From: Botryllus schlosseri | Taxonomy: Eukaryota | Reading direction: 5' to 3' | DNA: 64,000 nucleotides | Assembly: GCA_051294905.1 (NCBI GenBank) | Contig: CM119372.1 | Location: forward strand, 37,078,001-37,142,000 | Part shown: positions 14,396 through 64,000 of the stretch, piece by piece | How positions within the stretch are numbered: the stretch's first letter is position 1 | Layout of the letters: each line of letters begins with the position of its first letter | Translations under genes and position numbers: made by a program | Notes under the pieces: generated by a model | Told to the model about the DNA's origin: nothing | Databases searched by the model: none | The model's input: the letters and a program-made list of their open reading frames with translations, nothing else

Positions 14396-15631
14396 ATGAA
14401 GTCAGAGTTCATGGACGTTGATATTTCCGTCATCTACAACATTTCAAATGGAACGGCTGCTCGACTGAATTTATCTCAATCACAAATGGCAACAATCTGG
14501 ACCATATGTGGATTACTATCAGTCGTGGGCATCATCGCCAATGGAATGATGATCATGGTGTTGACTCGGACGAGGAAAAAAGTGTTCACCACGATTATTA
14601 TGGGACTTTGTCTTTCTGATATCATTTCTTCTTTGAACAGTCCACTGTTGATATACCAGAGTTACTCGTGGAAAAATTTTAATTTGCCATTGCCATTTTG
14701 TGCTACACCGATACCGATAGATATCGCTACCTCTGTGGTGACCGTTAATCATGTCCTGTATCTTAGTATATATCGTTTCCGTAGCATAGTACAGACCGTC
14801 AATTCAGACGAGAAAAACACCCTTCAACAATCCCAAGTGTTCGTGATAATGATCTACCTCATTTCGTTCACAGTGATGGCTGCGCCATTACTGTTCACTT
14901 TCGAAATAACCGAAAACAACCACATCTACTCTTGCGACCTCAAAATGTCAATGTATAGAATCACGAAAATATTATCTTTGGCTTCGTTGACTGTAGGCAT
15001 CCTCATACCAACGGTATTGATACTAGGGCTATGCGGGAGTATAATAATTGTCATGCGTAAAAGGATGGTAACAACTCAACGCGCATTCCGAATTCCGATA
15101 TCTAAGTGTTGGAGGTTTACCTAGGCTCCTCCTCGCCACCTCATCCGCGTCAGCGGTGTCTTACAAAAGCCTAGAGGTGGGCCGTGCTATAAGTCGGCAG
15201 TTACGGAAAATAAGAAGAATATCGGCCTGGTGTAAATGACCATAGTAGTCGACAAACACCATGAATACCCCAAAACAACAACAACAACAACTCAACGCGC
15301 AACCAACACTCAATCCAGGGCACAAGATCGGCAGGCCCTGGTTCAACTTTACGGAATCGTGATATCGTTCATCATCGGCTATTCTATTGATTATTTTGCT
15401 AAATTTTACGCTCACTATAACACCGACAGTTCAATGTTTAACACTATGGTCACAGTCATTTCGCATGGGATTCTCCGCATAACAGAGTGCATCAATCCTT
15501 TCTGGTACTGCTACGCTTCCAGCGATATTAGGAAGGAATGTAGAAAGCTCCTCCCATATCACCAAAGTAAGCCCGTGCGTCCTAAAGCAGTGGTTCTCGA
15601 ACTAGAGGCGCGTCCCCTTGAGGGGGCGTGA
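14396..15631 (+). pseudogene. Intronless orphan class-A (rhodopsin-like) GPCR disrupted by a SINE insertion in ICL3
   Basis: TM1-5 lie in 14396-15124 (GIIAN, LCLSD, YRF at the DRY position, ECL2 Cys, TM5 Pro). TM6-7 lie in 15236-15631 (INPFWY) in the same frame. Removing the 216-bp insert gives a 339-aa 7TM ORF. Confidence 0.88.
15086..15285 (+). mobile_element. 5'-truncated SINE with (AAC)n tail
   Basis: Flanked by the 16-bp direct repeat AACAACTCAACGCGCA (15070-15085, 15286-15301). Homologous to the reverse complement of about 57187-57395. Confidence 0.88.
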
Positions 15632-18450: not shown

Positions 18451-19832
18451 AATACGAACCCTAAAACCCGCAAGGATGGGTAACAATCTAATGTTCTAGC
18501 GCAGAGCCGGGCCACGTGTGGCCCGCAAGAGAGTTTGGGGTGGCGCGTGTGGTGATTTGCGAAATTAGTAAGGTTGTTAGGGGTGGATTGCGCGGATTGT
18601 GAACTTGTAGGGCCGACCAGAACTTGATTGGTCTGGCCGCCGCCGTTGGGACGTGATAGCTAGGGTGTCAGTTCCGACGCGTTCCCAGATCCATGAGGCG
18701 GTCGCATTTTGGTGGATCTTCATACACTACTATAAAGCGGAATAATTTGCGATAGATTTATCAAAAGTAAAGATTGTCTACACGCTTTGCGCAACACGTT
18801 GTCACTCGATTTCTTACTTTTAATAAGGTCACAAAAACGCCTAATGTGTCAGTTTGAGTCGAATTACATTCGCGGTTGCGAGACTAAGTGTCGTTCGGAT
18901 TATGCGGCCCCCGTTTGCACTCGCAGAAAGACCTCGAATATGAAAACTAGGCACGAACTGCATTTGTAACTGTGATAATATTCACCCGCTTTTTCGACAT
19001 TCTTTCTCTACAAAATGAGTTCTGACTATTCGGTGCTTTGTTTAATGCGAACGCCAATACAATTGCCTGAAAATTTCAAATGGGCTCTTCTGAAATGCGA
19101 TGCAGTTGAATTGAGTGACAAATTTCATACAAAGAGCATATCGACAAAGGGTACGTTCTTGAAATTGGTCTTTATCGCAACTTGAATAGCAATGCAAAAG
19201 GAATTGCATCAAATTTTGGAAGCTCGTGCGCCTGTGAACAATAGTTGCGAGCAATGAAATTCACGAAGAGCAAGCTAAGATCACGTATTTCTGACGTCAA
19301 TTTTGAATATGGTCTGATTCTTCTTTCATTTGACTCGTTACCAGAAGTTGAAAACCTCTCACAAACCAAGCTGCGTCAATTGTCACAATTATTCTGTGTT
19401 GTTAAGGTGTAAATACATGTGTCTTCTGATTGGTATGATTGAGATCGCAGCAATGTAGGATAATATACCGAAGTGAGCGTAACCAATTAATTTGTCCTAC
19501 ACCCAGTTGGCAAAGTGTAGTGACTTTGCATCATCATGCATACTTCGAAAATTCAATTTGGCTTGAATGGTGACTTGACGGTACTTGGCTGGGCTCGGGT
19601 CGAAATGTGTAATGTCTCAAGGAGACTCGTGACTCGAAGGTGGTGGTTTGATCTCCACACTGTTCTGAGGTCACAAGAGTTTATGGTTATAGCTATTCTG
19701 GAACACAGTGCAACTGTATAAAAAGTGCTAGTCGATTTGAATTCAAATAAAGGGAACGCTGAAAGACAGAGAGGGTCCGAATTGTATGACAATTGCTAAA
19801 GAAAAGAAAAACTGACTTGTGGATGATATCAG

Positions 19833-37262: not shown

Positions 37263-37778
37263 ACAGGCCAATTTTTTTCATTTTTATTCCGTAGCTACCG
37301 ACTTGTAGCACGGCCCTCTTCTACGCTTTTTATGAGACAACGATTACACGGTCTTATGTCGCATCTCTATCGTCCAAGATATCGGTGGTGCTGGAAGAAA
37401 ATAAATCTGAATCCTCTCTCTTTCTCTTTCTCGCTCTAAAGAATTGTTCAATTTCGTAATGTTGTGGCGTTTGGAACTGATGGATGATTGAAATAAATTC
37501 GTACCGGTTTGGTTCAGCTCATTGTATCCATAATTTCATCATTGCTCAACAGCACAAGATTGCAATAAGTTCAAAAAACAAATGAAATACCGATACTAGC
37601 GATATCTGTGAAACATGAATATATTTGAGAGTCCTCAATTTCAGTCTACGGTACGATTCGATGTTTATTGTTTACACTTGATTGAAAAATTCGACAGTTC
37701 AAGACTTCAAGTGAATCGAGTCCGCTGTTGTTTCAATTGTTGCTTGTTTCCGAGAAATACAGTTAAATAAACCTTCAG

Positions 37779-38624
37779 GCGTGGTTCACACCGGGAATTA
37801 TGTCCTTGCACCGTTACTACTCCGAATCGGTGGCAAGTCAACTATTAATTGAGACTATTCAAGAAAGCATTGTGTATCTGCTAGAAGAAGTTATTCTGGA
37901 AGATTTCGATAATGCTCCGAGCGAAGACGACGAAGAACGCCACGAACGATTGCTACAAAATTCCGATGACGTAGCGCGTGATTTAATGAAGCAGACAGCA
38001 GACGAGGAGATGTACAACATTGCAGTCGAAGTTTTCGACGCCACCTTGTTCACTCACCGAATGAAAGTCAAGGGAGTCGCTAAATTGAACAGGATACTAA
38101 CGCAGGTTTGCGATGATATGGTCGAAGACGTTGTTGCTGAGGTAGTAGGTGATAATATAATAATGTTACAAGCCTCCGATATTCTTGATGATAATCTGGA
38201 CGATATGTTATTGCACGAAATTACTGACATTTGCAATTCTGTTCTTGATCATTATCACATGCGGGCTGGCATTTCGCGATTTAAGCAAATCCGTGCATCT
38301 GCCGACACTATGTTACTAGACAAATTAGTACTAGATTCACTTCTAAGTCCCTCTAATGATATAGAGAGTCACGAAAAAGACGTGTTGCACACTGTAGCAA
38401 TGAAAGGCTTGAATGATATGATTTTAGATGTGGTTTCATCTCAGTCCTTGGCTCTCCATGCGTGTTCGCCTAAGGAATTGTCGACGCGGACAGAAAAGTT
38501 TTCAGAACAAGCTCCCATGGCTTGGTTCAAAGAGAGATTCGTTACTGATGCAGCTGTAGATGTAACACTGGGAATGCTTGTATCTAAGTTGGACGAGTGT
38601 TTAGACAAGCCTTCTGAAAAATAA
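37779..38624 (+). CDS. Probable terminal coding exon of an uncharacterised acidic alpha-helical protein
   Basis: 274-aa stop-free ORF with protein-like D/E/L/V-rich composition. An in-frame acceptor (CTTCAG) at 37773-37778 extends it by AWFTPGI. Upstream exons were not identified. Confidence 0.75.
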   Translation, partial: AWFTPGIMSLHRYYSESVASQLLIETIQESIVYLLEEVILEDFDNAPSEDDEERHERLLQNSDDVARDLMKQTADEEMYNIAVEVFDATLFTHRMKVKGVAKLNRILTQVCDDMVEDVVAEVVGDNIIMLQASDILDDNLDDMLLHEITDICNSVLDHYHMRAGISRFKQIRASADTMLLDKLVLDSLLSPSNDIESHEKDVLHTVAMKGLNDMILDVVSSQSLALHACSPKELSTRTEKFSEQAPMAWFKERFVTDAAVDVTLGMLVSKLDECLDKPSEK

Positions 38625-40823: not shown

Positions 40824-46236
<5,413 letters not shown>

Positions 46237-49188: not shown

Positions 49189-50809
49189 TATCTCTGGGTT
49201 ACATGAATGTATATAGCGACAGTCTGTCTGGCAATACGTGTCCCGATTCCCACATTAATAAATATTTCTAGACATCGCCCCATGCCGATTTTCAATGTTG
49301 TCATTACCGACTGCGTCATTGCCGGATTTTCTGAATTTGAACTGTATATGTCCTGCTTTCTCTTGACAATTGATCGCGGGGGAGATAGCGTAGTTGTAAC
49401 GATCATAAGCGGCCACCAACCTGACGGATCCGCTTCGATTCCCACCGGAGGTTACCTTGGCTCCTCTTCCCCCGCCGATGCCGTTCTTACGGCGACAAAA
49501 AAGCCCAGAAAAAGACCCGCCGAAAGAAAGCACTCACAAGGAATGGAAAGAACTACGGTAGAGAGGGCCACGGCTTCAAAAAAAGGATCAGCACAGCATC
49601 GAAAAGAACTGTGACATGGGCACTCTACTCTACTCGGCAGGTGGATGTTAGAGTAATGTAATGTAGTGTAGAGTAATGAAGTGTGTCGTTCGACATCCTC
49701 CTATCTGTTCATGACATCGCATTGTGTACATTGTGTGTGACTTGTTCTGATGAAAAATATAACCCAGCGATTATTAGCCTATTGTTATTATGATTATGTG
49801 ATGATATATCACCAAAGAGGCTACATTGTGGCGGACTGCTAGTCCTTTTAAGTCTCAAGCAATCCATGTATCTGCAGTATGCATGAAGGAACTGTAATAT
49901 TTTAGTAGGACAACTATTCGAACTTCATTATATCGTCTAGTATTGCGCAAGATTGATAACCATTGTTACGCCAAGCATAAGTCCTAGCTAGAGTTCTACA
50001 TTTTTCGTGTCGCTAGAACTTACAAACCAGTTTCTTATTTGCTCAAGCTTTGCAATTGCATTCATTGTTACGCATTTTCGGGTATAAAAACCCACGATTT
50101 CTCTCACGTCGCCCCTTGAGACTTGAGATTCATGAACGTACGCTTTTCCGAAGTATATCTGTATCGAGTAAATCTGCCCGGTTAAGAACTCGCAACGACA
50201 GGATAGCAAGTCGCCATCAGTTACACATTAATATTGCTTCAGGCACGACGAGTCCACTGTTACTTGTAACCAAGTCACAAGGTTCCGAGTCACAAGTCAA
50301 TCTCACTTTTATAGTTTTGACTCGAGTCAAGTCGAGTCAATTTCAATTCAGTACCGAGTCAAGTCCGAGTCCAAGTCACGGAGTAGAGTGTCGAGTCCGA
50401 GTTATTGTGTAGACTGCTCTGTTTCCAGTTAAAGTCTTGTTAAACCCACTTTTTATTACTCTGTTTGGTGATATCGAATGGTTCGCATTTATAATATGCT
50501 AATTTTCCTCACTTATAACAGTTTCTGGTGGCATTTTCAAGTATTAGTACTGATAGACAAAATAATTGTAGTGTATAGGTTAACCTTACTATTCTTCGAA
50601 ATTACAATGAAATGCCTGTCTTGGTAGACCCAGTCTCGAGTCATATGACTTGGTCCGAGACTCGGACTCCGAGTCATGCGCAATGACTCGAGTACAAGTC
50701 GAGTCAATACACAAATTGACTCGAGTCGAGTCGAGTCATTTTTCATTTTTAAGAGTCGAGTCACCAAAAAATCGTGACTCAAGTCGAGTCATAACTCGAG
50801 TCATTACCA

Positions 50810-53637: not shown

Positions 53638-54137
53638 TAATGATTAATCCATTTTTTTATTAAATCAGTGATGCCATATAAGGTTCGTAGATATATTTTT
53701 TATCACTATAATGATGGGTACAAGTATCACAAAATACAATGGCATGATTTGTAGAAGGTGAATTAACAGTTGCGCAGCATCATGGCCTATACTGATGAAC
53801 CCCTTCTCAGGAATAAAACTGAAGTTCACCGTGTATTAGAATCGGTTGAAGCTTCATCGTCTCTTCGAGAATTTCCACTTAACGCGACTCTGATAACTTC
53901 CTTGCGGATCTGGAGGATAGACGAAGTGATTTTATCGTTAAATAAATTCCAAAAATGCCACTGCAATTACGGCTCAGTGTGCAACAGACGCGGACAAAGT
54001 ACACGGCGAGGCCACTCGTGGAGAAGTCGTGCCTTAAATTGCCACTACAACAACAATAATACAAGAAATAGCGCTTTCGTAGCGAACGTACTTCAAATAG
54101 AAGTAAAACTTTACGTATAGTATAGATATCTAGTAAT

Positions 54138-55150
54138 CAGTGTTGGGATCAAGTCACTACCTTCGAGTCACGAGTCATCTCGAGTCATTGCAGATTTTGA
54201 CTCGAGTCAAGTCAAGTCAATCGATTTTCGAAGGTGACTCGAGTCAAGTCAAGTCACTCAATTTTTGGAGGTGACTCGAGTCAAGTCGAGTCAAGTCGAG
54301 TCAAGTCGAGTCAAGTCGAGTCAAGTCGAGTCAAGTCAAGTCACGAGTCAAGTCACAATTCAAGTCAAATTGAATTTTCGAAGTATGAGTGATGATTCAA
54401 AGTCATAACAATCTGCCAGCTGTGTGACAGACAGATTAATTAGCCTTTATCTTGGGTCAAATAACGAATATAAAGTTAAATATACATGCAAAAAGGCGTT
54501 GTATCGCACATGCGCACGTAAAACCGCTAATAAAATACGTGAGTAACTGCATAGTTACATGCTACGGTATGTTATTATCAGCCAAAATAGAGTACCGAAT
54601 ACGAAGCCTCGAAAAGTTTAAACAATTTGATATGGTACACTACCCATCTACACAACCGTGAGAATATATACGCATAAACTATATTCATTCGATTTAAATC
54701 ATACAAGAAGGTTGGTAAAGGTGAAAACTGCGCAATGTAAGCACTGCGCCATCTACGAAACATAACTATTAGATTAATCTACTACTACGACGGCAACGTA
54801 GCGGTGATCATTTCATTTGCGGCCAATTTATTCGTGATGTAGCAATGGAAGACCAGCGGAAGTGGAACGTACAATAACAGAAAGACTGCTCACATGTGTC
54901 ACTGGCGTATCGCAAATTATCCGAACATACACATGATACAGTGACTTAGTCGACACCATTTACTTATTGATGACTTGAAATTGACTCGTAAATTTTGCTC
55001 CGAGTCACGAGTCAATCCTCATTTCTGAAGCGCCGAGTCAAGTCAAGTCAAGTCATTTTTACAAAGTGACTCGAGTCAAGTCAAGTCATACGAAAAAGTT
55101 GACTCGAGTCTGACTCGAGTCAAGTCATGACTCGAGTCATCCCAACACTG
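54138..55150. mobile_element. hAT MITE with (CGAGTCAAGT)n subterminal arrays
   Basis: TIRs CAGTGTTGGGAT / ATCCCAACACTG. Perfect TSD CTAGTAAT. 10-bp tandem array at about 54277-54340. Confidence 0.92.
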
Positions 55151-55504
55151 CTAGTAATATGTATGATACAGCTATTGTGCAAAAAAGTTGATTTTGCCAA
55201 AGAGTTGCATATTTTTGATATACACAATCGAAGGAAGGTGAATATTGAAATTAAATGATACATCTTGAATGAACACGAAGTCGGTATATTGTCACTACAA
55301 ATATGACTATTTCATCCGTATCTTTACGACAATCTCACTCCTATACGCGCAATGCAAACCTAACCAAACACCGTACGTTCTATTTTCCAAAATGCAAAGT
55401 GTGAAAAGTCAGTCTGCTATTACATCCGTTAAGCGAAAGTACGTCGATAGTAGTCGACTTCAGTAATTAAAAGTAGACACGGCTATTCGAAAAAAGTCCA
55501 AGTA

Positions 55505-56460
55505 GGGGAGATGTGGTACCGATGGATCAAAAATTGCAAAATGATCTCTGGCCCTCAAATCTTCAGCCGAGAATAGTGGATCTTTTGCTGTCTCAACACT
55601 CCGATACAAGCTCAACCTATCGCGGACATTTACATGAATATCCGCCTTTTCAAAAAATATTTATAAACGTTTAAAATTTGTTGCTCGAACGTGTCATCGG
55701 TCCCCACCCGGTGGGTCCAATGGCACACGACCATGGGACCTATGAGACATACGCTCAATAACTCAAATTTGTTACCTTGTTTTGTTGTTTACTATAAGCT
55801 AAGCTACAGCAAGCCAATGAAAAATGTTTCGTCGCGACCGTCAAGAATAAAATAGATTATATCAACTCAAATGTTGGCCGAAAATCATGTTTTGATTTAC
55901 GCCTAAACTTAAAAAATTAATACCACATACATATTACCCGCAAATAGGCATTTTGACTTTCAAATACCTCGTAATAGCGATAAATATAGCGATAGTGATA
56001 TGATTTACAGCCTATATATATGTAGGCGAGCTTCTGTTGTTAAGTGATTAGTTGGTCCATCTATTTTGCTTGATTTGGCTATCGTATCATAGGTCCCCCA
56101 CCCCTAAATATTGTAATTGACTTGAAAATAGTCCACTCGAGGATGGTATTGATTCAACAAATATGTGGCATTATATACCCTGATACAAGCCCTATCCTTC
56201 ACATCAAAAATTATGGCGGGTTTGTTAGTCTGAAAGGTTATATAGAAAAATGCAAAGGTCGATCGAAATTTACTTTACACCCCCTAAAACGTAAATCATT
56301 CGTCACAGACCCCATAACTCACGCAGGTCGAATTTTTTCCCATGTGAGGAAAGATTCTGTCAGCATGTCAGACAAATTCACGGAGTGTTATCATGGGATT
56401 ATCATGGAGAATTTTTCAAGTATTTTCGGTCCCAGTGATCCATCGGTACCACATCTCCCC
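55505..56460. mobile_element. MITE with perfect 25-bp TIRs (possibly Tc1/mariner/pogo-type)
   Basis: GGGGAGATGTGGTACCGATGGATCA and its exact reverse complement at the ends. TA is present on the left flank only. Confidence 0.85.
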
Positions 56461-57186
56461 CGTCGACACCAACTTCGGTGTTCGATGGTATAGCAAAGCA
56501 GATAGTAGCAAAGAATGTTGATGCGCCGGTCTTCAGAGTTTAAAATCAGTTAGGGGTTCAGTTGCAAAAAACTCTGACTCAGCAAGCCATAATCTTTAGC
56601 CACTCCTTTAGTCGCAAAGATACGTAGCAAATGCAACGTTTAAACTCTAACCTGACTATTCATCAGTACGTAGATAATCGGATTCAACACAGTTGCTGAT
56701 TTGGCGAAGTACACGGGTATGGTACCGACATATTGGTTAACCTGAATGAAAATAACTTCAATTTACTCCGTACAACATCAACAAATCCAATAAATCTGAA
56801 GTGAGCTTATAACCAGACCTGCATCCCTGGACGAGAGACAGCCGTTATCGCCACCAACGTGTACGGTGTCCAGCAGATCAGAAATGCGATCATGATGCTC
56901 ATCACTATCTTGGTGACGTCGCTCTCAGCCTCTTGCGATTTTCGCGAATGGATTGATGATGCCGTTCTGGTTTACGGAACATCTCATTGTTCAGAAAGAC
57001 GACAACTAACGACAAATTCAATCAGCAATGCCACCAAATTTTCTATATAAGGTAAGAACGCATGTAACGCAGACTGTATATTTTAATCCTCGTTCTCAAA
57101 ATTACCTGATATATCCATAATGCACATACCGCCAGTTTATTTATCCATATTAAACCCATGTAAACAGGACAACACGCCGTGTTCTC

Positions 57187-57470
57187 TGTTTTTGTTGTTT
57201 GGGGGTATTCATGGAGTTTATCGACTGCAATGGTCATTGGTCATGTACACCAGGCGATAATCCTTACTTTTGATTCCATAACTGCCGACATGTAGCACGA
57301 CCCACTTACAGGCTTTTTTAGTACACCGCTTACGCGGATTATATGGCGAGCAGGAACGTAGATAAACAGCCCACACTTAGGTAGGAATTCTGGAGTCGGT
57401 CGGACTCGACCCACGGCCCATTGATGTTACAGCCGTGAATCATACCTCTAGACTATCTCGCCACACAGTG
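57187..57470 (-). mobile_element. Near full-length tRNA-derived SINE (same family as the GPCR insert) in an opsin intron
   Basis: Minus strand has A-box-like TGGCGAGATAG and B-box-like GGGTCGAGTCC. Body and CCATGAATACCCC(AAC)n end match 15086-15285. Confidence 0.8.
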
Positions 57471-59879
57471 CTTCATGATAAATTCGACAATCAAATTTGT
57501 GGAAACCTGCACCCTGCAATTTTGTCTGGGGCACTATCAAGTCCTCTTGTATCTAACAGTTTCAGTATTACCAGAAAATACAAATTCGAATTAAAATTAG
57601 AGCGATAAGCAACATTTTCCAAATTACACGCGAATTAGGTTACCGGCGTTTCGCTTAATTCTATTAGAGATCTAGAATTATCTATAGTTGTTTACGCATG
57701 CCTATAGTACGGGTATGCGCGAGAGAAGTAAAAAATGCCAATATCACCTTTCGTATAATCATCACGATATTTGCGTAGCAGGTGGCCAATGTGATGAGTT
57801 TGCCAAACTAGCAGAAAACCATGAGCAGTATCAGGTATATTCTTCTGTTGAGGTGTCTGGTATTCCAAACCGGCCCGCAGTTTGTACAGATTCCTTCTAG
57901 GTCGTATCCGCCCCATAACAACGGCGGAAGGTTCCATGTTATAGCCCATAGCCAGGCGAAAAGCAGAGCTGAAATGTACAAGACGCTACTGCTGTTTTCG
58001 ACACCAATAACACGCAGTTCTCATTCGAGGAGGTGATATGTTGGTGTTGTTCAATTTCTTGAAAAATGCATGTAAAATACATGGAAAATAGGCTTGGATT
58101 TTTTCCAACCTATCCTTCCATCGCAGCTGGGTTTTAACTAAGGCACAAGGTTCCGAGTCACAAGTCAATTATATAGGGTTACCATATTTCAGTAGCTCAA
58201 AAATCCTGACATTCTTTAGCGCCTGCTACCGGGGTTTAAAATGAGATATGATCACATTGTCTGTAAATATGACACCACACTCGCAATGCCTTGCCTATCG
58301 ATAGGCCTATACACGAGTGGATATCTGAAAATCGGTCATGAATGAACTAGGCTACTGAGCCATGTCTAATTTGAGATCTTGTGATTGCAAGGGTGGTATT
58401 CTCATTTAGTCTGCAACAGACCTCTCATTTAGTCTGCAACAGACCTCTTAACGGGACGGATGAAATCGTCTCGCGGACCGTAGGCTACGCGCTTGACACC
58501 CCACGCGTATATATACTGTTACGTCGGCGGATATTGTAACCAGGACCGAAACAGGACTTTGTTAGCCTCCCTCCCGCAAAACTGCTCTGGGGCTCAGCAT
58601 TGGGCGATCGATTCTGGTGCTAACTATATGCATGCAAAACCAGTGTACGCGTTTTGGGGGAGTGTGGCAAAGTGAGGCTTTGGTTTTTTATTTTGCTCAA
58701 AGTTGTCAGCGGGCTCGCGCAGGGAATTAGTGACTTCGCCCAGACTCTAAGACGAGTCGAGTCATTTTCAGTATTTCGCGACATAACAAGAGTGAAATGG
58801 AGTCATCGGAAAATCACAACTGGAGTCGGGCTCGAGTTGAGTCATGAGTGACCCGAGTCATATACAATCCTGTATCGCAGCCTTGTGTTGTGTGTTATTT
58901 GAGCGAATAAGAATCGAGCGATTGTTGAACATAGGCCTACACATAGGGTTGCATTTGAAACAAATGGTTGTTTAAAACGCTGTTTAAAACATGATTTAAA
59001 CAAAGTGTTTTAAACAATGGCCTTTAAAAAATTGTGTTTTTTTAGAGTTGTATAATTATGTCATAATTGTATAAATACTTTCCAAAAACATGTGGTATTA
59101 TGAGCCTAAGGACGGCGATTACCACCCGATATAGCTGACTTATATAATATAGGATGGTGGGAACCCTCGAAATAGTTGGTTCAAAAGCTATAAATAGATC
59201 ATAGGTACGGAATGAATGTTCTGATGATGATGATGAACGCCGTTCGTAAAAATGCAGCAAGAAGATGTAGTCCTGGTTGAAGATATTTTTGGTCCGTATG
59301 ACAGGGGTTGAAGCCTATTTCGTCTGAGGAGCTATATTTACCGTATATTTTCAATTGTGAATATCAACCACTATGACGTGACAATTGAATATGTGCGACG
59401 TGACAATTGAATATGCGTGACGTAATGGTTAAAATAAACATGTTTTAAACATGGGCCCTGTTTTAAACATGTTTTTTTTTAATTGATTGTTGTTTTAAAC
59501 ATTACAATCGATCGGTACTGTGGATGATGGATCAAATACTAAGCTGTGAACTCGATTCCATTGGGTATCAGGTTCAAATCCCATCACCGATGTCGCTATC
59601 GATCGGTAGACTGTTCTACGCAGGTATAGTAATTAGATATTCGTCAAATGCAGATCGAAATCATCTCACCGCGTCTAATTATGCTACTGGAAAGCACTGC
59701 GTAGCCGCATGCGTAAATCCGTCGGGAACCAGAAGAAAATTACCAATGTAGAGAATTCTGAATTATGATATCGATGAATTGTACTGTGTCCATCATCCAC
59801 TGTTCATGCCTCGCTTACTGGATATTGTCCGCGATCCCGTGAGTTGTTCATAACATGCAGCCGTAAGTGATCTGCGATT

Positions 59880-60260
59880 ACCAGAACGTAATCAGGCCAT
59901 GGCTATGAACTCTGTCATCGGCAAGCATTTGGCTGAGAATGCAACTTGCGCAAAAAACTATCGTCATGAAAGAATCTCTATATTAGGTAGAGGCCGCACT
60001 CATTTCCATCTGTCTGCACTGGAATCGACTTTCATTAAAATCCACCGACCGCGCTTGCGTCAACAGAAGGAATTTTTAGTCAATCTAAAAATTGGCCACT
60101 AGCTGCGCCCGCGGTTTGCCTGTATTTCATGTTGTTAGTTTCTATGACGTCATAATTGGTTATATGTAATGTAGCTAGATGCATGTTTATACAATTCTCC
60201 ATTCGCTGACGATTGCCCCTGAAGAGTGTCATCTCGAAAAGCCTCGGGTTTTAATATATA
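59880..60260 (+). mobile_element. Penelope-like element 3' fragment (GIY-YIG C-terminus)
   Basis: SVIGKHLAENATCAKNY..ISILG..HLSALESTFIKIHRPRL..Q fits the S.I..H...IL...LE..I...P.L pattern ending PLE endonucleases. Confidence 0.7.
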
Positions 60261-61754
60261 TCTGCCATGAATATATTATTAAAATGTGTATTAAAGTTCT
60301 GTAGCCCTACCCCAAAGAGTCTCTTAAGAAACATAGATCCTAAATCAAACCATGAGGATCATTCTTCTAACTGAAATTTTTAATTTAGTCTCCTCGGGCC
60401 TCCATTTCAGTCTCGCGATTAGATGTATCCGACTAACTTTATCAATTACAGCAAAACTCTTCCTACATCAAACCTAACCACTAGTGAGCTGACCCCCCGA
60501 GTAACGAGATATTGCGACATGAGAGTAGATACACCGCGAATTTTCCAACTGACTTCAAAATGTCACGATCTTGAATACCTTGCCTTCCTAATACGAGTAT
60601 TAATTACGATACTCACGATATTCCATCAACACTCTCTACTGTCAGTGTGTCTTACCGTATCGCCCATGCTTTACTTGTGGTACATATACTCCGAACGGTC
60701 TGCATACCACAAGGTATCTTGAGAACGATAGGATGCATATTATAGTCAAATTTACAATGCCTGAATGGAAAGACCTTATCAGTGAGTTACCAGACTACTT
60801 GACGATAGAACGGATGATTGACAGGGGCGAGTAGCGGTTCATGCATATAACTGTCAACCAAATAGCCGGGGTGGTTAAAGTATACTACATGTATCACAAG
60901 TACAGTAGGGGCTTGAGTAGCAGTAATGCCGTGAATTTCGAGTGGAAATAACAATTTTGGACATTTGTAAAAACTACATCAATTGGAAGTTGACAATTAA
61001 AATACGAAAAGTACTCAAAAGGGGATAGTTCGAAAAATTTATATTTTTTCGAGATGTTAAAAACCTTTCGCACTTAGTCGGAGATGGATGCTCTCGAAAT
61101 TAAATGGTGCAGCATCGTGACTGACGCAACAAAGTAAGTGCCAATATGACCAGTGATTGTCGAAGTAGTCTCGTCTGGAAGTGGAAATTATAAAGACGTG
61201 TCAAGACTATTCACGAAGAAGTAAAAAATAAGATTTGAAGATTTGAAAATTACACAGGTTAGTAGTGTCAAAACGAGATTTGGTCGATGGGTCGTATACT
61301 GTCGCAGGTCGCAGGTCACCACTTTTGAACTCGTAGTGTGAATCTTCCCTACCAATATGAAATGACAAATGACCCTACAAATAGCCGCAATGTTTGAAAA
61401 TGCATGAAGTTAGCGTGGTACAATTTCTATTTCGGCCTGTTGACAGGACAATTCCATTCTAAAGATGATGCAACCATGTCCCAAAACTAGTTTCCACTCT
61501 GTATCAAAGTGAAGGAAGTAATCCTAGCTGAAGTAATTCATTGCTGGCCACCTTTAATTATAACGCGGTGGTATTTTTGAAAACACATTCAGTTACCTTG
61601 GGTATTTCGCTCAGCTGTTCATACAACAGCTCTCATGAAAATGATGCAGACATAGAGCAATATACTTCGCAGTTTACAAAATCCAAATCGAACAGGGTCA
61701 GTAGCTTATCCTAAAATGTTAAGTAGATATGGAAGAAGACTAGTTATACTAGAC

Positions 61755-62975
61755 CAGGGGTTCTCAAAGGGTGGGCCATGGCCCACTGGTTGGCCACAGG
61801 AGCATTTGAGGTGGGCCACAAAGCTATTTAGAAAATTTTAGAATTAATGTAAGTTTAGTTATATTTGTTATCTTTATCGCTAAAAATATATTCATATTAT
61901 CTAATTATACGTATTTCCATCAGACTCTGATGACACGTAGTGGCATGTATGGAGTCAGCATGTACACGTTATAAACGCCAGGGAGAAACGGCGGCATTTT
62001 CCAATGGCTATGACAACCTACGGCTAAATGCAACTAAAATAATTTCGAGTAGGCTATATAATAACTGAAATGTAATGCTGAAGTAACCAAGTATTCCGGC
62101 GGGGGCTGGGGCATATGTCGTATGCCGTTGAAAGGAGTGTGCAATAAACTCGGAGCGAAGTATAATTGATGTATAGATTTACTGTACTTAGGGAAATCGT
62201 GTTATTGTAAGATAAAAAATAGCCATAATTGCAAATTATTAGCAACTTCTGGTGGAGGTAGGTATACTGCACCACCGCAACGAATCGTAATGGAATGAGG
62301 ATTTAGCAGAGTGCATTAAACTTTGGATTTGGTTTAAAATGTTCGCCCTGATATCATTGTACATAATGTAAGACTCACATGAATTGATTGTATCGTTGGA
62401 TTGAATATTCTGACATCGCCGCTTCAGTTGGTTTGGTACCAGATGTGTTATTGCATGCATATTAAAAAAAACTTTCTCTACTCTGTAGTACCCCATTCAC
62501 CAATAAATTGTTGGAACCTGATCCAAAATGAATATATTATTCCTCGCAATAGTGGAACTAAAATCCCAATCACACAGTGGATGCGTGGATTTGATCATTG
62601 TGTTTTGCGATGCGAATGGAGCAGCGGACGATCATGATATACACCAGAGTTCAGCCTATGATCTACCAAGGCCGTAACTAATGCACCAAAACCCCCCATT
62701 GCAGAACCTCGAAGAGGGCCAAGATTATTTCGTTGGTCGTTTGTTGGAGGGTGTTTATACGACTTAAAAAAATTTCGTCGCGCTTCGCGCGGGGTCTACA
62801 TTTTTATGTCATCAGTAAATTAAGGGCAAAATGCGCATATTTTGAGAAATAGGCATGTCGGCGCCGTCGATTACCACGCATTGAACAGGACTATGACTTC
62901 AAGATAAGAGGTGGGCCACAGCACATGCTCAAACCGGAAAATGGGCCACGGCCAAGAAAGGGCTGAGAACCCCTG
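61755..62975. mobile_element. hAT (Charlie/Buster-type) non-autonomous element in an opsin intron
   Basis: TIRs CAGGGGTTCTCA / TGAGAACCCCTG. TSD TACTAGAC/GACTAGAC. GGGCCA subterminal repeats. Confidence 0.82.
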
Positions 62976-63743
62976 GACTAGACACTAGAGTAGGCTACTT
63001 CATGTAAGTATACCTACTTATAGGAGTCCCCGGAAGTCTCGCCCACGGCCCCTCAATCGTATGGCCACCACTGGTGATGAGGCCATGCTTCAAGTCGAAT
63101 ACAGTGAATTTCAATAAGGAACATCGTTCTGGGGTAACGTGACTTTAGGCTATGGTCTTTCATGTACCATGAATACCAACAACATACGCTATTCGATCCG
63201 TGTCATGACTTTTAAAGAATGTAAAGAAATACCATGCTTTGCCGAACGTTCCAATGACGAAACCTTCCATATCACAAACCACCTGGCCGAGGTGGAAGTA
63301 TCCCGCTGCAGTGGTAGTTATATTAATACACCCGCCAAATAACGCACTGCAAAAGTCAGTCACCGCCAGATTCTGAAGCATGAAATGTATGGGTCGTTGC
63401 AGATTCTGAAAGTCGACAAATGAATTCACTCCAAGCAACTGTCTGATAAGCAATAGTCTGAAACGAGAGGCCTTCAACATTTTTCTTCTTGCTTTTGATA
63501 TTCATTACAAAATGATTTGTTACTTAACCCGTATTAGCATTTGTCATCAGTCTTACATGTGAAGAGCTTCTTGGAGGTACAGAACTTCAATATACAATTA
63601 AATAGTATATTCATATTGAAATGAACCCGAATATTTTCGGCTGACACTCGTCAGGGGTAATCGTCAGCAACTAGTAGAGAATTGAAAGAACATTGTATAT
63701 CAACAATCGTCACAAAATATGACGTCACCAGCATGAAATTTCG

Positions 63744-64000
63744 AATGAGAGAGCGTTCAATGTACTATTTTTAGGTGATACACGAACTCCTTTTGTTGAC
63801 AGAGTTTTGGTTGGTGTATTTTGATAAAAGTTGATTCCAAGGCTATCGAGACGACCGATTTCGAATCGTAGGTCGAGACCGTTCACAATTCCATTTGTGT
63901 GCCTTGGAATCAACTTTTATCAAAATACACCAACCAAAACTCTGTCAACAAAAGGAGTTCGTGTATCACCTAAAAATAGTACATTGAACGCTCTCTCATT
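63744..64000. repeat. Perfect inverted repeat, arms of at least 100 bp with a 57-bp spacer, running off the window
   Basis: 63901-64000 is the exact reverse complement of 63744-63843. Confidence 0.95.

Follow-up and report, generated by a model that had tools for sequence, protein, structure and literature searches.

Is the opsin sequence spread over some ten kilobases of a Botryllus schlosseri contig a working photopigment gene, a dead one or an artefact of assembly, and, if dead, has a kind of light sensing gone with it? The sequence lies on the minus strand, at 53826-63405, of a stretch of 64,000 nucleotides (nt) that we call the window (NCBI GenBank assembly GCA_051294905.1, contig CM119372.1, positions 37,078,001 to 37,142,000; positions below count from its first letter). 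It consists of six exons, a to f, which correspond to transmembrane helices 2 to 7 (TM2-TM7) of a vertebrate-type ciliary opsin. Very probably the locus is real, a copy of a divergent ciliary opsin of tunicates that was put out of action recently and sits beside apparently working copies. Two observations carry this answer: two DNA sequencing runs hold the same letters as the window at its two hard lesions (a premature stop and a lost splice acceptor), and a closely related sister sequence differs from it at both.

The opsin exons and their lesions

When full-length opsins were aligned to the window with tblastn, all seven matched exons a-e (E value 0.003 or better), while none matched the reversed window, so the opsin exons are not a chance resemblance. 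Pfam family 7tm_1 was recognised on four of the six exons, each time below its curated cut-off, and opsins headed the list for all four exons searched against the Protein Data Bank (PDB). The preliminary description of this locus, made from the letters alone, had counted five minus-strand exons; those exons are real, and a probable last exon brings the count to six. No exon for TM1 was found in 63406-64000, the part of the window upstream of exon a, nor did tblastn reveal a second opsin locus in the window. Exon ends and PDB alignments put introns at rhodopsin positions 121, 232 and 312, which we take to be conserved intron positions of ciliary opsins.

The retinal-binding residues had been described as intact, and they are: the lysine of YFAKSAT, both disulfide cysteines, CWxPY (here CWTPY) and NPIIY can all be read in the sequence. 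Residues 7-30 of exon e align to 1f88 289-312, which places the lysine, residue 14, at rhodopsin 296 (K296), and an alignment of 49 query residues to 49 residues of 1f88 (68-116) places a cysteine at 110 and, within the same range, a glutamate at 113 (E113). The second disulfide cysteine (C187 equivalent) lies in the NCG of exon c, the E181 equivalent is the glutamate of LEG, aligned to the EG motif, and position 90 is glycine. Other conserved residues did not fare as well. Of those that serve G-protein activation, ERY is SRY (with R and Y kept) and the TM5 proline is lysine, under the rhodopsin numbering that we assume for this helix; in addition, QFR is QIR. Since the TM5 proline is also absent from P0001 and P0141, two unnamed Logan exon fragments with an open frame, this change marks the subfamily and not decay. 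Judging from these residues, K296 would be the retinal-binding site in the product of the parent gene, and E113 and E181 would lie close to the Schiff base; E113 together with E181 is given as the chordate ciliary opsin pattern in one study (PMC2781864).

At least two single-base changes would have struck the window copy. One of them, a nonsense change at 57808, would account for the in-frame TAG in TM5 noted in the preliminary description. The stop falls after 142 residues of the window-encoded part; K296 is present in the DNA but encoded behind it, and TM6, TM7 and K296 would never be translated. The second hit concerns the TM6 exon (exon d), for which a shift of 1 nt against the upstream donor had been described. 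This is correct if splicing uses the CAG at 56966: the exon is then 148 nt long, 1 nt out of phase and closed by a stop after 13 codons. Begun at 56971, however, the exon is in frame and its loop has the length found in Styela P0171. Because AA at 56973-56972 stands directly before this in-frame exon of 153 nt, the most fitting explanation of the phase defect is an acceptor that was destroyed, not an indel. A 2-nt insertion near 56933-56929 combined with an acceptor at 56982 was considered and ruled out by a contig of run X7 (record 16), which aligns with no gaps and differs from the window at 56972. Loss of the acceptor would force use of the out-of-frame site at 56966 or skipping of TM6; skipping of exon d keeps the frame but removes that helix. 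A third defect that had been described, GC instead of GT at 63241-63242, is indeed present where the phase-1 donor must lie; this donor matches four of nine consensus positions, against six to seven of nine at the other four donors. It would be a probable third hit, or else part of a working GC-AG intron, a class that accounts for 556 of 113,879 introns in the ascidian Ciona according to one report (PMC2760879). Transcripts of the window copy would be expected to decay or to give no pigment.

Four of the 24 listed sequencing runs, three of DNA (X2, X4 and X7) and one of RNA (X14), were compared with the window over 56550-58150, that is, 1601 of the 9580 bases of the locus; the GC donor lies outside this stretch. 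Contigs with no difference from the window cover the TAG in X2 (57778-57968, depth 52) and X4 (57778-58150, depth 39), and likewise position 56972 in both (56942-57208, depth 43 in X2 and 38 in X4). These two runs come from two studies. The preliminary description had named a sense codon at the TAG, in reads or cDNA, as speaking against a pseudogene; two of the three DNA runs carry the window letters there without a difference.

A second sequence type, 5-9% diverged in exons and introns alike, is present in all three DNA runs. Its depth is 77-86 in most records of X4, about 80 in X2, where a further type stands near 48, and 5-6 in X7. It shows 29 differences from the window in 370 nt in X4 (depth 79) and, in X7 record 16, 22 differences in 422 nt over 56550-56971 with 0 gaps, leaving no indel in exon d. 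The alignment of that record begins with its second base, at 56971, which leaves the preceding base, at 56972, different from the window; the window-type contigs of X2 and X4 start 30 bases before 56972. At the stop, both types in X4 break at 57788 and restart at 57778. Overlaps of 30 nt between contigs, directly visible in X7 records 19 and 20, place the end of the stretch shared by the two types at 57807, the only one of ten positions tried that reproduces the bin depth of 234.3. Since the shared stretch ends there, the first base that differs between the types is 57808, where the TAG has its third base; of the alternative letters there, two give tyrosine and one gives TAA. At a divergence of 5-8% the chance that both chosen sites differ is about 0.4% (arithmetic on the difference counts). 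Among the displayed exonic differences between window and sister, four of five are synonymous and the fifth is a glycine-to-cysteine change confined to the window type.

A type of depth 2 in X7, 2-4% from the window, is the same as the sister over 57794-57823 and 56943-56989. It seems to lack both lesions, which suggests that they are very recent. The damage may have been tolerated because near-identical copies apparently without it sit in the same animals, so that sister copies would cover the loss. Run X7, which is filed under another species label, has most of the displayed sister variants of X2 and X4 at depth 5-6; it is a very close relative, a contamination or a label problem.

Table 1. 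Exons, lesions and intronic repeat of the opsin locus (window positions; TM, transmembrane helix)
Feature	Position	Strand	Description	Basis or remarks
Exon a	63243-63405	-	End of loop 1, TM2, start of TM3; rhodopsin 67-121; G90, C110, E113	Pfam 7tm_1 E 1e-5; best PDB matches cone opsins and rhodopsin
GC donor	63241-63242	-	TCG GCAAAG across the exon/intron joint; phase 1	Probably a GT donor that has mutated, or else a weak GC-AG intron
Exon b	60656-60760	-	End of TM3 with SRY for ERY, loop 2; phase 1/1	
Exon c	57748-57968	-	TM4, loop with E181 and C187 equivalents, TM5; phase 1/0	
Gly-to-Cys	57888	-	LEGIC for LEGIG	Window type only; Gly in P0001, P0141 and named tunicate opsins
Premature TAG	57808-57810	-	TM5	Read from sequence; sister sequence differs at 57808
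Short interspersed repeat	57187-57390	.	High-copy, intron c-d	Summed contig depth up to about 100,000
Dead splice acceptor	56972-56973	-	Reads AA, before exon d	Sister differs at 56972; contigs X7 record 16, X2 record 1, X4 record 10
Exon d	56819-56971	-	Loop 3, TM6 with CWTPY; 153 nt, phase 0/0, open frame	PDB opsin matches E 5e-7
Exon e	56652-56741	-	TM7, YFAKSAT (K296), NPIIY; ends at rhodopsin 312; phase 0/0	
Probable last exon f	53826-53909	-	Helix 8, short tail, TGA	Acceptor, frame and alignment; no tblastn match

The short interspersed repeat of intron c-d has a 78% copy at 15090-15286, and an Rfam search of 57100-57600, the region around it, gave no match. Elements with terminal inverted repeats occupy parts of intron e-f (55505-56460) and intron a-b (61749-62981), their repeats being 25 nt and perfect in the former and 18 nt at 94% in the latter. 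Intron e-f also holds GACTT/GACTC-rich short-repeat arrays (54138-54441 and 54998-55139), to which sequences near 19500-19660 and 50270-50800 are related. A short repeat stands in inverted copies at 60205-60303 and 63578-63668, flanking exons a and b; a further copy lies at 45692-45797, and these are probably dispersed repeats. A foldback element with 100-nt perfectly complementary arms fills 63744-64000, to the end of the window, just upstream of exon a.

Placement among tunicate opsins

With the stop replaced by an X, the translated protein shares 33-39% identity with five named tunicate opsins and 34% with two vertebrate opsins. In a tree of 28 rows it forms a clade with P0001 and P0141 (support 100/99) on a long stem (0.98). 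This clade is sister to nine named tunicate opsins (96/94) and not nested inside the nine, which form a clade of their own (89/94). All of them belong to a 23-row vertebrate-type ingroup (100/100) that stands apart from TMT/OPN3-like opsins, and a quick tree of 50 rows gave the same placement with a Shimodaira-Hasegawa-like approximate likelihood ratio test value of 93. A position outside the opsins, which the preliminary description had named as speaking against its identification, was therefore not found. Nesting among the named tunicate opsins, which orthology to Ciona Opsin1/Opsin2 would call for, was likewise absent from the tree; a long branch can push the window opsin falsely outside that group. 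The locus thus appears to belong to the vertebrate-type ciliary opsins as a tunicate member that evolves fast, and its host is most likely an ascidian. In a survey of this superfamily, members are reported from vertebrates and tunicates only, not from amphioxus (PMC11893379).

The known tunicate opsins of this type (Ciona Opsin1/Opsin2, the 'VA-like' and 'pinopsin-like' opsins of Clavelina and the 'MWS-like' opsin of Styela) share K296, E113, E181, the C110-C187 pair, CWxPY and NPxxY with the window opsin and are colinear with it region for region. The window copy differs from them in its SRY, the missing TM5 proline, the NCGPVW loop, the stop and the dead acceptor. The nearest sequences are P0001 and P0141, which are 62% identical to the window over exon c, end at the same 3' donor and share with it GGYDLEGI, TNCGPVW and the lack of the TM5 proline. 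Unlike the window, both have an open frame, phenylalanine at the stop position and glycine where the window has cysteine. Full-length members of the subfamily were sought in weak single-exon searches and not found: none of four candidates belonged to it in one case, and one of nine, the fragment P0001, in another. A metagenome scan gave five loci from 86 pattern matches, each of 19-34 residues, and these were dropped as probably spurious.

Vertebrate non-visual opsins (VA, pinopsin and parapinopsin) belong to the same superfamily as the window opsin and share its E113, at an identity of 34%. The window gene presumably has two or three more introns than the vertebrate genes, given the number we assume for the latter. 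The same survey documents well that pinopsin, VA, parietopsin and QB opsin have become pseudogenes in vertebrates; tandem duplications, by contrast, it did not find in the vertebrate non-visual opsins (PMC11893379), unlike the window opsin, of which near-identical extra copies are present. Two vertebrate-type opsins have been described in Ciona (PMC13170672, PMC3826523), and Ciona Opsin1/2 act in larval photoreceptors (PMC13170672). By analogy, an intact window-type opsin would work like these.

Null allele, dead paralog or lost subfamily

The proposal of a recently pseudogenised paralog or a null allele, made in the preliminary description, has held: both hard lesions occur in DNA contigs and a close sister differs there. 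As to which of the two applies, the depths of window and sister types stand at about 1:2 in X4 and 1:2:1 in X2. Such ratios need three or four copies, more than one diploid locus gives, and they fit a duplicated, copy-variable locus. The likeliest case, to which we give an even chance, is that an opsin array was duplicated recently, varies in copy number and carries a null allele at one of its loci. That the null allele belongs instead to a single, very polymorphic locus is a possibility to which we lend rather less belief, and a fixed dead paralog is improbable.

Several points weigh against a recently disabled copy beside working ones. X2 or X4 may be the sample from which the assembly was made, and the choice of runs fell on those that contain words of the window. 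The window-type contigs have 30 letters, not 31, on one side of each lesion and so formally fall short of the rule for bridging a site, although a flank of 30 letters is expected where the lesion itself is the branch point of the contigs. Of 216 difference rows 40 were displayed, with neither lesion among them, so that it is the geometry of the contigs that shows the sister to differ; its letters could give TAA at 57808, and two non-G letters are possible at 56972. The sister was covered within 56550-58150, which takes in exons c, d and e but leaves the GC donor and exons a, b and f outside. The trees were built without vertebrate visual opsins, parietopsin and amphioxus opsins, carry the long stem and were not accompanied by an approximately unbiased (AU) test. 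Pooled, chimeric or polyploid samples could also fit the depth ratios.

An old, species-wide loss of the opsin subfamily, tied to reduced photoreception as in Molgula, for which pigment-organ losses are described (PMC5516394), would agree with the long branch, with SRY, QIR and the missing TM5 proline, and with a sister whose letters at the lesions are not displayed. It is nevertheless very unlikely, given that the sister differs at both hard lesions, that four of the five displayed exonic differences are synonymous and that the TM5 proline is equally absent from the open-frame P0001 and P0141. The weight which the preliminary description had placed on photoreceptor gene loss was accordingly too high, since each of the three DNA runs contains close copies that depart from the window at both hard lesions.

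That the copy still yields a protein, through read-through of the stop, a changed code or other splicing, has even less to recommend it. GC-AG introns do exist in Ciona, in-frame GT donors are present near the GC donor, and skipping of exon d keeps the frame. Against this, read-through and a new acceptor would be needed together; the 56966 site runs into its early stop, skipping costs TM6, and the AGs that would restore the frame, at 56929-56908, lack a pyrimidine tract and would shorten loop 3. Of 64 partial reads of X14 (about 6% of one bulk RNA run) that aligned to the locus, none was 95% alike or better; there was no depth on exons c and e, and a depth of about 3.5 in bins 56874-56981 came from reads of a related copy, which is too little to speak for silence or for splicing. 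Least credible of all are assembly or sequencing errors in an intact gene. Three single-base defects in otherwise clean exons would suit them, and one or both of the matching runs could be the source sample, but in two runs, which come from two studies, contigs agree with the window at both hard lesions without a difference, at depth 38-52.

Neighbouring genes and biological meaning

The plus strand of the window carries three further features. At 14411-15631 lies an intronless class A G-protein-coupled receptor (Pfam 7tm_1, E 6e-16) that is split by an insertion of 216 nt. A target-site duplication of 16 nt accompanies the insertion (15070-15085 and 15286-15301), and the frames on either side are open and in phase; the insert belongs to the repeat family found in opsin intron c-d, and the gene is a second recently broken receptor of this class in the window. 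An exon of a 2OG-Fe(II) oxygenase (Pfam E 7e-4) at 45817-46236 resembles ALKBH6. An acidic open frame of 285 codons at 37767-38624 had no clear Pfam match, and an Atlas search gave no usable one.

A literature search revealed no report of a tunicate opsin pseudogene or of a comparable expansion, most subscription journals and supplements, among them the opsin lists of tunicate genome papers, lying outside its range. We would venture, tentatively, that the working sister represents an undescribed third branch of tunicate vertebrate-type opsins, with E113 and E181 kept, SRY and no TM5 proline, expanded into a copy-variable array. If so, the array might offer, beside the vertebrate visual opsins, a living series of variants in counterion and coupling, in which the segregating null allele would serve as a natural knock-out of the E113 member.

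Opsin pseudogenes are common, and a broken copy is no sign of lost light sensing where apparently working near-copies are present. It looks like ordinary turnover of a gene family, and the divergent, multi-copy family is of more interest than the broken copy itself. If a null allele segregates, a genetic test of the function of this opsin would be possible. The value of the locus lies in its evidence for a fast-evolving, multi-copy branch of vertebrate-type opsins in the tunicate lineage, with turnover ongoing.

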